A DNA stretch of 51,044 bases. It comes from a virus. Taxonomy: Duplodnaviria > Caudoviricetes. Positions 111 to 9,724 of the stretch are shown in pieces. Numbering within the stretch: position 1 is the first letter of the stretch; the number at the start of each line of letters is the position of its first letter. Below the pieces are notes generated by a model. It ran no database searches. It worked only from the letters and a program-made list of their open reading frames with translations, and was not told the origin of the DNA. Position numbers and translations under genes: made by a program. The DNA lies in the IMG/VR virus record IMGVR_UViG_3300007735_000750, positions 1 through 51,044 of that record. One strand, 5' to 3'.

Positions 111-153
111 GGTGTCGCTGAAACCATATTTTTTATCTTGTGTAATCTAAATA

Positions 154-342
154 GTGAAGCCAAAATATAAAATAGGCGATAAAGTATTATCTTTTTGTAA
201 ATATAAAAATGAACAAATGATTGGGGAAATAGTAGGTATAAGAGAGGCTAAATACAACTGGGATTATAATATTAGATATTTAATTTATATTGATTTATTA
301 TACTATCAATGGATAGAAGAAAAACATATTAGTAAATATTAA
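154..342 (+). CDS. hypothetical protein (SH3/KOW-like 'KYKIGDKV' start)
   Basis: ORF track; GTGTAA motif at 140-145 just upstream. Confidence 0.65.
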   Translation: MKPKYKIGDKVLSFCKYKNEQMIGEIVGIREAKYNWDYNIRYLIYIDLLYYQWIEEKHISKY

Positions 343-5106: not shown

Positions 5107-5200
5107 GCGAGGGTCGTCTAACTGGTTAAGACCCCACACTTATAATGTGGTCGCTCTAGATTTGGGCAAAATGCAGGTTCGAATCCTGCCCCTCGTACCA
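5107..5200 (+). tRNA. tRNA-Ile(UAU) with long variable arm
   Basis: Acceptor GCGAGGG/CCCTCGT, anticodon stem CCACA/TGTGG with loop CTTATAA, T arm GCAGG-TTCGAAT-CCTGC, encoded CCA, ~22-nt variable region. Confidence 0.9.
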
Positions 5201-5599: not shown

Positions 5600-6112
5600 A
5601 TGAGAAATTGTTTAAAATGCGGGGATAAAATCCCTAATTCAATTAAAATTGGAGATAAGTATCATAATTTACAAAGGCGTAAATATTGTATAAAATGTTC
5701 ACCTTTTAAAGCTCACAATACAAAAAGAATTCACGAAAAAAGAGAATTAAGTCCATATGTAGCTAGAAACTATCAGAAACTAGATGAAGAAGGGAAGAAA
5801 ATCTTTAATAGATATTCTTATGAAAAAAGTTGTAAAAAGCGTAGAGATCAAAGGAAGAAAGATCTTGTGCTGATGTTTGGGGGTAAATGTATCACTTGTG
5901 GCTATGATAAAAATTTACATAATTTATGCTTTCATCATAGAGACCCAGAGGAAAAACTTTTTGAGGTTAATGTCCATAAACTAGCTAGTAAAAAATGGGA
6001 TACTCTAGTAGAAGAAGCTAAAAAATGTGATTTACTATGCTTTCATTGTCATAATGATTTACATTATCCAAATGGATTAAATTGGAAAAATGAAGAAGCT
6101 GGGGGTCGTTAA
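5600..6112 (+). CDS. HNH homing endonuclease
   Basis: CxxC pairs, GGKCITCGY, FHHRDP, CDLLCFHCHNDLH. Confidence 0.85.
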   Translation: MRNCLKCGDKIPNSIKIGDKYHNLQRRKYCIKCSPFKAHNTKRIHEKRELSPYVARNYQKLDEEGKKIFNRYSYEKSCKKRRDQRKKDLVLMFGGKCITCGYDKNLHNLCFHHRDPEEKLFEVNVHKLASKKWDTLVEEAKKCDLLCFHCHNDLHYPNGLNWKNEEAGGR

Positions 6113-6698: not shown

Positions 6699-6705
6699 AT
6701 TTATC

Positions 6706-6778
6706 GCTCTCGTAGCATAGCGAATAATGCAATTGATTTCTAATCAATAGATCGCAGGTTTGAATCCTGCCGAGAGCG
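6706..6778 (+). tRNA. tRNA-Arg(UCU)
   Basis: GCTCTCG/CGAGAGC acceptor; ATTGA-TTTCTAA-TCAAT; GCAGG-TTTGAAT-CCTGC. Confidence 0.85.
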
Positions 6779-7005
6779 AGAATTTTTTCCCAAAAGATTT
6801 TTCTTTATGTAAGCTTTTATGTGAGATGGTATGAAAAGAATTTTATTTGGATTTTTATTTTGATGATGGCAGGAAGTATATCGTGGGGAGCAATAATCGA
6901 GTTAGTGAAAATTATAATTACACATATAAAATAATTTTTTCCTAAAATCACTTATCCCAAAAATAATAATTGAATTATTTCTCACTGCACTGTAAAATAC
7001 TATAT

Positions 7006-7179: not shown

Positions 7180-7252
7180 TAAGTTGTTGATTATTAAGTA
7201 GTTAGGGCGGCGGGGACTCTCGCCGCGTAAGTCGTTGATAGACAACGAGATT
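7180..7252. repeat. paired-palindrome element D3 (48-bp offset)
   Basis: TAAGTTGTTG-ATTAT-TAAGTAGTTA + 23-bp GC core + TAAGTCGTTG-ATAGA-CAACGAGATT. Confidence 0.85.
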
Positions 7253-7292
7253 TATTTCTTGCAGAGAAACGAAACTATGGTATGATTATTCT

Positions 7293-7674: not shown

Positions 7675-8049
7675 ATGAAGGATATCGGCCCAAAATTAAG
7701 AGTTTATTTTAAAACTAAAGGTTATACCGATCTTTCTTTTTACAAATGGGACACCATAGAGAAACTATTTAATCTTCTTTGGGAAAATTCAACTTACTCA
7801 ATTACTATTGATTATTCTTATCTTGAAGAATCATTGAGGATACTGGATGTAAAAGGTTATAGAGGTAAAGATGGTTTATCTCTTGAAACATTCTTTCTTG
7901 CTAATAATGATTGGAACAGAATTATTACCATTTGGAGTTTTGTTTGTGATTTTATTCGAGATAATTCAGCATTAGAAGAAAAGGGCTCTGGTAGAATTCT
8001 AGTTAAATTAAGTAAAACTGATCGGATTGATTGCACTTTGATTGCTTGA
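7675..8049 (+). CDS. hypothetical protein
   Basis: Promoter TTGACA-N16-TATAGT (7641-7668) 6 nt before ATG. Confidence 0.75.
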   Translation: MKDIGPKLRVYFKTKGYTDLSFYKWDTIEKLFNLLWENSTYSITIDYSYLEESLRILDVKGYRGKDGLSLETFFLANNDWNRIITIWSFVCDFIRDNSALEEKGSGRILVKLSKTDRIDCTLIA

Positions 8050-8079
8050 CAATAAATTAGCATCTGATACTATTTAGAT

Positions 8080-8293
8080 AGTTCTTCGATATCAGAGAAG
8101 GTTGACCGTAAGGTTGCAGTTCTGGAAAGTTTCCAATGGCAACATTGGTTATATATAACGGAATGCCAATACTTCTCGCGCGAGTTTGACTAACTCCATA
8201 AGAGGATGAACCTGCCAACGCCCAGAGTCTGAGGCAAATTAAAAGAGCAGGGTATTTCCTTTACGAATCATGAGCGTAAAGGGTCGAAGAACT
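8080..8293 (+). ncRNA. unassigned ~214-nt structured ncRNA
   Basis: Own promoter TTGACA-N16-TACTAT (8046-8073); 10-bp closing stem AGTTCTTCGA/TCGAAGAACT then T7; several internal helices including two GNRA hairpins; no ORF. Confidence 0.75.
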
Positions 8294-8299
8294 ATTTTT

Positions 8300-8503
8300 T
8301 TAGAAGAAATTACTGTGTTCGCTTTTCCAACCTGTGCGGTGGTGAAAGTTCCAATCAAGAAGTGCCCATTCGAATCCTACATCTTTACCAGCTTTTTCAC
8401 TTTCAAGCCATTTGTGCTTTAATATTTCCTCACGCTCTTTGAGGAATTCTTGATATAACTTTGAGTTTTTGAATACTTGATCCATCTCGGTTTTACTTTT
8501 CAT
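8300..8503 (-). CDS. DUF4032-like small protein (host-like)
   Basis: LYQEFLKEREEILKHKWLESEKAGKDVGFEWALLDW motif, recalled from PVC bacteria; GTGTAA motif on - strand at 8525-8530. Confidence 0.7.
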   Translation of the reverse strand: MKSKTEMDQVFKNSKLYQEFLKEREEILKHKWLESEKAGKDVGFEWALLDWNFHHRTGWKSEHSNFF

Positions 8504-8589
8504 CAAATACAATTCTAAATTAGATTACACTAAATAGCAAATAGTAATTGATAAATAGATAAATATCTAATATAATAATACTACATATT

Positions 8590-8661
8590 GGGGCTATCGT
8601 CTAATGGTTAGGACGGAGGCCTTTCAAGCCTCTAGTATCGGTTCGAATCCGTTTAGCCCTA
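8590..8661 (+). tRNA. tRNA-Glu(UUC)
   Basis: GGGGCTA/TAGCCCT acceptor; GAGGC-CTTTCAA-GCCTC; TTCGAAT T-loop. Confidence 0.85.
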
Positions 8662-8735
8662 AGTATTTGATTATCAAGTATTTACAAAAGTGAGTGGACC
8701 TATGCTTCTATAAGTCGTTGATATTCAATGAGATT
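8660..8735. repeat. paired-palindrome element D4
   Basis: TAAGTATTTG-ATTAT-CAAGTATTTA ... TAAGTCGTTG-ATATT-CAATGAGATT, 51-bp offset. Confidence 0.9.
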
Positions 8736-8775: not shown

Positions 8776-9609
8776 ATGAAAGTTAACGAAATTATCACAG
8801 AAAAATTCATCGAAGCCCTCAACAATGGAACTTGCCCTTGGCAAAAGCCTTGGAAAGTTTTTGATCTCTGCAACGGTATTTCAAAAAAGAATTATAGGGG
8901 CATCAACCAATTTTTGCTGCGTATGGTTTCTTCTGACGACTTTTTCTTTACCTTTAACCAGATTAAAGAACTTGGAGGAAACATCAAGAAAGGTGCTAAA
9001 GCTCATCTCGTAGTTTATTACAAGCTGCTAAAGAATAAAGATGATGAAAGCACTGGTTTTCCTATGATGAGATATTACAAAGTCTTTGGGTTGAGTGATG
9101 TCGAGAACATCAAATGGAAACAGCCCGAAGTGAAAAAACTCGATTTTTCTCCAGTAGAAGAAGCAGAGAAGTTGATTAACAAGTGCATTATTAAGATCAA
9201 GCACGGCGGAAGTCGTGCCTGTTATTATCCGCAGGAGCATAAGATCGACCTACCTCCAAAAGAAAACTTCAACAGCGTTGAGGAGTATTACTCCACTGCG
9301 TTTCACGAGATTGGTCACGCTATGCACAAGGCGACCAACGATGAAGTGAAGAACGGATTCGGTTCACAGAATTATAGCAAAGAAGAATTAACAGCAGAGA
9401 TTTTTGCTAGTCTCTGTCTTAACTTCTGCGGAATTGATTCTGAAAAATGTTTCAACAATTCTGCGAGCTATCTTTCGAGCTGGCTCCAAGTATTAAAAAA
9501 GGATATGAATTTTATTATTTCAGCTTCTAGTAAAGCACAGAAAAGATTTGACGTTTTCCTTGGTAAAAAAGAAACTGAAGAAGTTATTGAAGAAGCTGTA
9601 ACTGCTTAA
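8776..9609 (+). CDS. ardC: ArdC-like antirestriction / ssDNA-binding protein (DUF1738 + zincin domain)
   Basis: PWQKPW, NYRGIN, TFNQIKELGG, YYSTAFHEIGH, YSKEELTAE, ASYLSSWL. Confidence 0.85.
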   Translation: MKVNEIITEKFIEALNNGTCPWQKPWKVFDLCNGISKKNYRGINQFLLRMVSSDDFFFTFNQIKELGGNIKKGAKAHLVVYYKLLKNKDDESTGFPMMRYYKVFGLSDVENIKWKQPEVKKLDFSPVEEAEKLINKCIIKIKHGGSRACYYPQEHKIDLPPKENFNSVEEYYSTAFHEIGHAMHKATNDEVKNGFGSQNYSKEELTAEIFASLCLNFCGIDSEKCFNNSASYLSSWLQVLKKDMNFIISASSKAQKRFDVFLGKKETEEVIEEAVTA

Positions 9610-9674
9610 GCATCAAAGAGTTACAGAAGGGGATCTCCTTCCGCTTCTCTAAGTCATTGATATTCAACGAGATT
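9599..9674. repeat. paired-palindrome element D5
   Basis: TAACTGCTTA-AGCAT-CAAAGAGTTA ... TAAGTCATTG-ATATT-CAACGAGATT, 51-bp offset. Confidence 0.8.
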
Positions 9675-9724
9675 TAAATGTAAAAAAAACTTGTCACAAG
9701 AAAAAAAAGTGTTAGAGTTTATTT

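Follow-up and report, generated by a model that had tools for sequence, protein, structure and literature searches.

ROOL and GOLLD are phage-encoded structured RNAs, often found near tRNA islands, in which conserved loops sit on variable stems and copies are joined by kissing-loop contacts (accessible text of bioRxiv 2024.12.08.627333 and PMC12990946). The short cyanophage RNA manA (RF01745) forms oligomers through kissing loops and GNRA loops, has variable peripheral helices, and is described as a putative 5'-UTR element in the accessible part of its report (bioRxiv 2026.07.01.735769). The pRNA of phage phi29 is likewise small and builds oligomers with two complementary four-pair loops, and the HIV-1 DIS presents a six-base palindrome with short flanks in a 2+6+1 apical loop (accessible text of PMC7357161 and, for DIS, also PMC11567899). 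In the VS ribozyme, loop V (U696-G697-A698-C699-U700) makes a three-base pairing with stem-loop I, and cleavage takes place in the internal loop of stem-loop I between G620 and A621; the three-pair kiss is unusually stable (PMC4138328, accessible text). T4 rnaC (139 nt) and rnaD (119 nt) are small stable RNAs of the phage tRNA cluster, the former ending in a T-arm-like hairpin and the latter in CCA.

Here, we describe an RNA family of 130 to 214 nt that, by analogy, may work like ROOL, GOLLD, and manA but by model score and size is a member of none of them. ROOL and GOLLD are longer (~550 to 830 nt), and the family has no Rfam match; unlike manA, it bears a palindromic loop and is followed by no fixed gene. 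The likeness to DIS is a motif analogy between unrelated RNAs: the DIS-type spelling GUGCAC (PMC7357161, accessible text) occurs in 2 of 90 family members, most family palindromes are AU-richer, and the hexamer is not flanked by purines throughout. With the VS I/V kissing loop (PMC4138328, accessible text) the family shares the UGACU pentaloop and a complementary GUC loop, but its overall fold differs, it has no recognized counterpart of the A730 loop, and, by eye, a C instead of a G occupies the place matching the cleavage site. It differs from phi29 pRNA in lacking an Rfam match and any tie of the window RNA to packaging genes. Identity with T4 rnaC or rnaD was rejected, as these gave no match to model R1 and the family has neither the T-arm nor the CCA end.

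No published description of the family was found in our literature search, in which four sequence words occurred in no paper. The candidates of Fremin 2023 (PMC10690425, accessible tables; 8,495 DNA-virus models), compared by tables only, gave no match, and an anonymous earlier prediction among them is possible. As judged by sequence comparison, the RNA family is real and uncatalogued.

A predicted structured RNA in a phage tRNA region

The window, the whole stretch of 51,044 nt that we analyzed, is part of a large phage and carries terminase, PhoH, and HNH genes and six tRNAs. The closest relatives of its terminase are at just ~25%, with none close among cultured phages. In a blastn search with the RNA element, cultured phages gave chance matches of 20 to 25 nt only. 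The element is covered with 0 letter differences by contigs of two DNA studies (one of which may be the source sample), and a contig from a freshwater run spans most of it with 7 differences. One relative (G003) is a complete record of 172 kb. A tRNA called Ile with anticodon UAU (91 to 94 nt; window positions 5107 to 5200) is found in most related loci; in bacteria, such a length and such an anticodon are uncommon. Between tRNA-Met and tRNA-Lys lies an HNH endonuclease gene (5600 to 6112), in a position like that of segB in the T4 tRNA cluster.

The element lies within the tRNA region, as the original prediction had it, between tRNA-Arg (6705 to 6779) and tRNA-Glu (8589 to 8662) and 22 kb from the terminase. 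The features of the locus are as follows.

8046 to 8073 (+): sigma-70-type promoter, TTGACA, 16 nt, and TACTAT with TG before the -10
8080 to 8293 (+): predicted ncRNA, long form, ~214 nt, closed by P1 (8080-8089/8284-8293)
8091 to 8207 (+): P2 arm; base helix P2a (8091-8093/8205-8207) assigned from the short forms
8095 to 8177 (+): optional long-form domain with two GNRA-capped hairpins (8105-8114 and 8133-8148) and an AU-only palindrome (8149-8158)
8182 to 8196 (+): P2b hairpin; loop UGACU (8187-8191), candidate kissing partner
8208 to 8254 (+): P3 arm with GAA junction, P3a (8211-8215/8247-8251), CAA internal loop (8216-8218), and P3b (8220-8222/8233-8235)
8258 to 8282 (+): P4 hairpin; 9-nt loop of 2 nt, the palindrome UCAUGA (8268-8273), and 1 nt; predicted dimerization site
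8295 to 8301 (+): U-run after P1, likely 3' end
8776 to 9609 (+): ArdC-like anti-restriction gene (Pfam ArdcN and MPTase-PolyVal; PHROG 7245), context only

Positions 8080 to 8293 fold with a minimum free energy of -66.1 kcal/mol (z = -3.55; 1 of 200 shuffles was equally stable). All helices of the original prediction were recovered, and two details were redrawn. Pair probabilities are 0.85 to 1.0 for P1 and the helices at 8095/8177, 8105/8114, 8133/8148, 8182/8196, 8211/8251, 8220/8235, and 8258/8282. The perfect P1 stem stands, but the T7 run does not follow it directly, since an A (8294) intervenes. The GACC-GTAA-GGTT tetraloop hairpin placed at 8104 to 8115 is present, with a stem better drawn as ACC/GGU at 8105 to 8114. 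The statement that no ATG follows the promoter was incorrect: ATGs occur at 8136, 8163, 8206, and 8270. Their ORFs are only 17, 8, 8, and 50 amino acids long, respectively, and a coding role was rejected. The ATGs at 8136 and 8163 fall in an insert that is absent from the short forms described below, and the one at 8270 exists only with the UCAUGA spelling of the palindrome.

The core of the RNA is a four-arm junction of the closing stem P1, P2, P3, and a variable P4 hairpin. P2 has an asymmetric bulge and the UGACU loop; the letters of its P2b stem vary across the family while pairing is kept. P2a has a pair probability of 0.0 in the window sequence, and its place in the long form comes from homology, not from energy prediction; both sides change in 4 of its 5 pairs among short forms, and it is invariant in long forms. 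P3 is the most conserved part of the family. Its 10-nt loop holds AGUC (8226 to 8229); four pairs away from this loop, an invariant CAA faces an invariant G. A Y-R pair beside P3b covaries (U-A in 20, C-G in 14, and unpaired in 3 of 37 short forms).

Homologues and covariation

Pattern scans of viral and metagenome contigs yielded at least 220 matches, of which at least 192 were complete and at least 90 distinct. The distinct complete homologues comprise at least 73 short forms (~130 nt) and at least 17 long forms (~214 nt), so the length of ~214 nt originally given is right for the window RNA, which is a minority version of a 130-nt core. Fifteen of the 220 matches were omitted as cut or unparsed, including L151 and L207, which have a different P1, and L317, in which the P4 arm runs out at the contig end and the palindrome is not visible. 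The flank filter excluded another 13, namely two with AAA for GAA (L278 and L330), two that were cut, and nine chance matches; L278 scores 145 bits with model R1. A looser viral pattern gave 86 loci and one added member (L243), and a 15-mer scan gave 104 loci, of which 5 were confirmed by nhmmer, all on contigs already collected.

Pattern-based collection is blind to members that have diverged in the P3 loop. We also used the ArdC-like gene as a handle for fetching syntenic loci. Upstream DNA was available for 25 of the 26 loci fetched, and 20 of these 25 carried the main RNA, all 20 with the same P3 motif although found without the pattern. The conservation of the P3 loop is therefore not merely a product of the pattern scan.

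Short and long forms share one core: against a model made from 37 short forms, the window RNA scores 71.7 bits over its 3' part. These 37 of 73 short forms were chosen by eye for diversity, leaving aside L023 and L361, which were misaligned by MAFFT. Both sides change in 16 of 38 pairs of this alignment, 93.5% of cells pair, and the stems retain G-U pairs; none of 500 shuffles, which ignore kinship, reached 16 of 38, and slid controls were 40 to 53% paired. In the 17 long forms, which are 94% identical, 5 of 69 pairs change on both sides, and 96.3% pair (5 of 500 shuffles). The homologue collection and covariation test suggested with the original prediction thus bore it out. We consider it very likely that the element is a functional structured RNA.

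The long form differs by the extra segment 8095 to 8177, placed on the 5' side of the P2 internal loop. This domain is present in 17 of the 90 collected sequences, with both loops GNRA in 17 of 17; in hairpin 8133-8148, 3 of 6 pairs change on both sides among long forms. All 13 viral contigs that match the insert pattern also carry the core pattern. The original prediction had missed the 130-nt core, the palindromic loop, and the GACU and AGUC loops. A third size class of ~155 nt (L023:2057-2211 and L361:234-387) has an AGACU loop and, at the 3' side of the P2 bulge, an added hairpin.

The original prediction had found no match to tmRNA, RNase P, 6S, SRP, or a riboswitch, and the covariance models of Rfam 15 gave none. 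At gathering score, the element had no Rfam match, and the only matches in the window were tRNAs. With E values up to 10, neither the long form, the short form, nor the insert had a credible match, and the hits were chance-level matches on the reverse strand. Likenesses to the hairpin ribozyme, SRP, RNase P, 5S, and T-box were dropped by eye and on Rfam results. In GTDB genomes, scanned for exact pattern matches and thus blind to distant cellular relatives, the strict pattern gave 0 matches. A loose pattern gave 93 cellular loci, none of which scored with model R1 (best, 17.2 bits; E = 0.069).

Promoter and genomic context

Upstream of the RNA, the original prediction placed a promoter at 8046 to 8073. 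It reads TTGACA-16-TACTAT, and its -35 overlaps the stop of ORF 7675-8049. Counted in the window alone, the promoter pattern is not above chance (8 found versus 5.0 expected; 15 of 100 shuffles). Among homologues, a promoter-like pattern stands in register in 90 of 101 contexts, versus 0 to 3 at shifted positions; a first, stricter pattern gave 35 of 101 and was widened afterwards. Ten of the 11 contexts that fail the widened pattern still carry TTGACA. The window promoter is thus supported by the register held across homologues and not by the window-alone count.

A U-rich run follows the element in 98 of 102 contexts, a count made without a control in AT-rich DNA. The DNA upstream varies: of 100 contexts, 52 have a terminator hairpin, 9 the end of a tRNA, 12 an ORF of one type, and 27 other DNA. 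No terminator was found in the window between ORF 7675-8049 and the RNA, and read-through from this ORF into the RNA is also possible. Identity in the RNA is 91 to 97% among 14 long forms, versus 39 to 47% upstream and 40 to 65% downstream, and no protein gene stays linked to the RNA across contexts. Because the register of the promoter is fixed while the neighboring genes change, we predict a stand-alone unit. The fold is also more stable on the promoter strand (-66.1 versus -58.7 kcal/mol). The 23 sequencing runs listed for the element include no RNA run. The RNA would be a free molecule made from its own promoter, its transcription being deduced from sequence. The original description of an independently transcribed multi-helix ncRNA of unknown class is supported by the covariation, the fixed promoter register amid changing neighbors, and the lack of an Rfam match.

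On the minus strand, a small ORF (8300 to 8512) converges on the 3' end of the RNA; its last codons look conserved in many relatives, and it has a weak match to DUF4032 that is below the cutoff. By eye, twin-palindrome modules precede early promoters at window positions ~7180 to 7255, 8660 to 8735, and 9600 to 9680.

The palindromic P4 loop

A 6-nt palindrome is present in the P4 loop of 89 of 90 RNAs (33 of 34 distinct arms). It has five spellings, UCUAGA (68), UCAUGA (10), GUCGAC (7), UCCGGA (2), and GUGCAC (2), and the one exception, UCUAGG, is still able to pair with G-U. Of all window positions, palindromic hexamers account for 1.8%. The window palindrome is predicted to be exposed, with an unpaired probability of 0.95 to 1.0.

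Two members (L003 and L293) differ solely in the two central bases of the palindrome. When the loop is excluded from tree building, the two central columns change jointly in 7 of 7 cases, while flanking loop bases change 3 to 15 times. This tree omitted nine sequences with another P4 layout and is poorly resolved, and recombination may inflate the 7; the floor is three independent double changes, each of which keeps the palindrome with a chance of 1/15. Being neighbors, the central bases could not pair with each other in a single loop, and their changes are accompanied by none elsewhere in the RNA. Pairing between copies is therefore the simplest reading of their coupled change. The exposed palindrome is kept by compensatory change, as in a DIS-type kissing loop.

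The loop is asymmetric around the hexamer in 81 of 81 sequences, and its flanks change freely (13 to 15 changes). The 3' flank is a purine in 81 of 81 and position -2 in 75 of 81, but 62 of 81 have U at position -1; in the window sequence, all three sites are purines. The most frequent palindromes form weak duplexes (-5.2 and -5.0 kcal/mol versus -7.9 for GUGCAC). The comparative evidence for self-pairing is unusually direct, and RNA copies probably pair with each other through P4.

The GACU and AGUC loops

The P2b loop contains GACU in 90 of 90 members, as UGACU in 88. This loop and the AGUC loop of P3 are complementary and are predicted to be mostly unpaired; by analogy with the VS ribozyme, they could kiss. 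Both are invariant, and for this reason covariation cannot support their pairing.

Distribution and a second RNA in the same slot

Three phage lineages, defined by terminase (77 to 80%, 29%, and no match), carry the family, with one RNA match per record in each of the six records that had a match. The RNA is placed among cassettes of a promoter plus a small gene and, in the window, near ArdC. In a 66-kb phage of another lineage with PolA and rIIA/rIIB (G004; L151, positions 119 to 249, minus strand), the core is nearly unchanged, and the closing stem is much longer and written in different letters with its pairing kept. This extended stem is possibly an excision signal. By eye, no promoter of the sigma-70-like type is adjacent to the G004 RNA. 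It lies opposite a terminase-small-subunit-like ORF (weak; E = 6.5e-4), a neighbor seen only in G004.

In the other 5 of the 25 syntenic loci, the slot holds an unrelated structured RNA preceded by a promoter of like kind. This second RNA is multi-helix and ~170 nt long (L018:7459-7640 and the contigs of L019, L020, L021, and L022; five contigs in all). It has a z score of -4.07, 2 compensated pairs in three sequences, and UUGCAA across one stem-loop tip, and it has no credible Rfam match. The second RNA was not found in four records carrying the main family, nor the main family in the second RNA's two partial records.

A model for the RNA and its alternatives

We propose that the RNA is made early, stays free, forms a homodimer via P4, and offers a host protein a two-headed decoy or scaffold; we put the probability of this whole model, protein partner included, at about 0.45. 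The element would be a conserved four-arm ncRNA gene of lake-type phages, its RNA likely made early from a host-type promoter. P2 and P3 would pack side by side via the GACU/AGUC contact into a rigid, invariant core, while P4 would point away and kiss the P4 of another molecule. The GNRA-tipped helices of the long form would add further contacts. More speculatively, the invariant core may bind and titrate a host defense or RNA-binding protein in early infection. This last step draws on the neighborhood and is suggested by the host-type promoter, the cassette-like mobility, the ArdC island, and the exchange with another RNA; the putative host-protein partner is speculative. Of the four functions guessed originally (decoy, antitoxin mimic, scaffold, and ribozyme), scaffold or decoy fits best, and ribozyme fits less well.

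The choice between a dimer and a cage turns on whether GACU would pair with the AGUC of its own molecule or of another. If the two loops paired between molecules, with the palindrome linking rings, the RNA could build an RNA-only cage or ring, a miniature ROOL-, GOLLD-, or manA-like store or sequestering particle with no dedicated protein. Two separate loop-loop modules and the optional GNRA loops would suit such an assembly, and there are precedents: manA (<200 nt) forms 8-, 10-, and 60-mers by kissing loops, with peripheral helices that alter assembly (bioRxiv 2026.07.01.735769, accessible text), and ROOL and GOLLD lie near phage tRNA islands (bioRxiv 2024.12.08.627333, accessible text). However, the P2 and P3 arms are similar in length and joined by three bases, which would favor contact within one molecule; a single palindrome tends to yield dimers (PMC7357161, accessible text); and the family has no sequence match to ROOL, GOLLD, or manA. 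We regard a cage as unlikely. Also unlikely is a 130-nt RNA that builds a defined RNA-only particle from two orthogonal kissing modules, the palindromic dimer loop and a VS-type GACU/AGUC contact. Such an RNA would travel among unrelated phages on a promoter cassette, be swappable with the second RNA, and shut down a host defense system by titrating the sensor. The UGACU loop, seen in 88 of 90 members as in loop V, and the invariant CAA/G near the AGUC loop also bring to mind a VS-like ribozyme, in which UGACU would dock a GUC-bearing stem-loop and the adjacent CAA/G internal loop would be a cleavage or ligation site. This is improbable: no counterpart of helices II to VI or the A730 loop was recognized by eye, the AGUC loop has no U before GUC for the second U-turn described in the accessible text of PMC4138328, and the closing stem is in the same place in every member, with nothing flanking for a cut to release.

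The tRNAs nearby could point to a tRNA-processing leader or a tRNA-like stable RNA of the rnaC/rnaD kind, as 41 of the 54 fully flanked contexts have a tRNA within 1.2 kb and 12 of 102 have one that starts immediately downstream. Yet 90 of 102 contexts have none there, the 24 kb examined of G004 (12 kb from either contig end) contain no tRNA, and in G006 the nearest is 3.5 kb away in 16 kb examined, so linkage to tRNAs is not obligatory. The 90 sequences have no T-loop motif and no CCA end, and the T4 tRNA region gives no match to model R1, which makes a tRNA-related role very improbable. We hold the same view of a metabolite sponge, a riboswitch-like four-way junction that would capture a small molecule in trans, such as SAM, thereby weakening restriction enzymes. 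Its appeal lies in the four-arm junction, which we take to be SAM-I-like in layout, the bent P2, the conserved CAA bulge in P3, and the anti-restriction neighbor. SAM-I riboswitches have an L2-J3/4 pseudoknot and a fixed downstream gene. Here, L2 is complementary to L3 instead of J3/4, short and long forms have different bases opposite CAA, and neither form matched a riboswitch family at E values up to 10. SAM-I itself was rejected on the lack of a model match, of L2-J3/4 complementarity, and of a fixed downstream gene. Finally, the palindrome or the whole element might have no function as RNA, being a passenger cassette whose palindrome is repaired by template switching at a DNA hairpin; template-switch mutation can produce coupled changes in inverted repeats. 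It would not, however, leave the loop asymmetric in 81 of 81 sequences with freely changing flanks, and the G-U pairs kept in stems, the identity of the RNA far above that of its flanks, and the better fold on the promoter strand also speak against this reading, which we find the hardest to credit.

Implications

The function of oligomer-forming phage RNAs such as ROOL, GOLLD, and manA is an open question in the field. The present family is small and therefore easy to make and mutate, and it comes in natural short and long forms. Natural palindrome variants predict which copies should and should not pair, and the coupled change of adjacent loop bases is comparative evidence of selection for contact between copies. 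The occurrence of two unrelated structured RNAs as alternatives in one early-island slot suggests that RNAs serve phages as exchangeable accessory genes.
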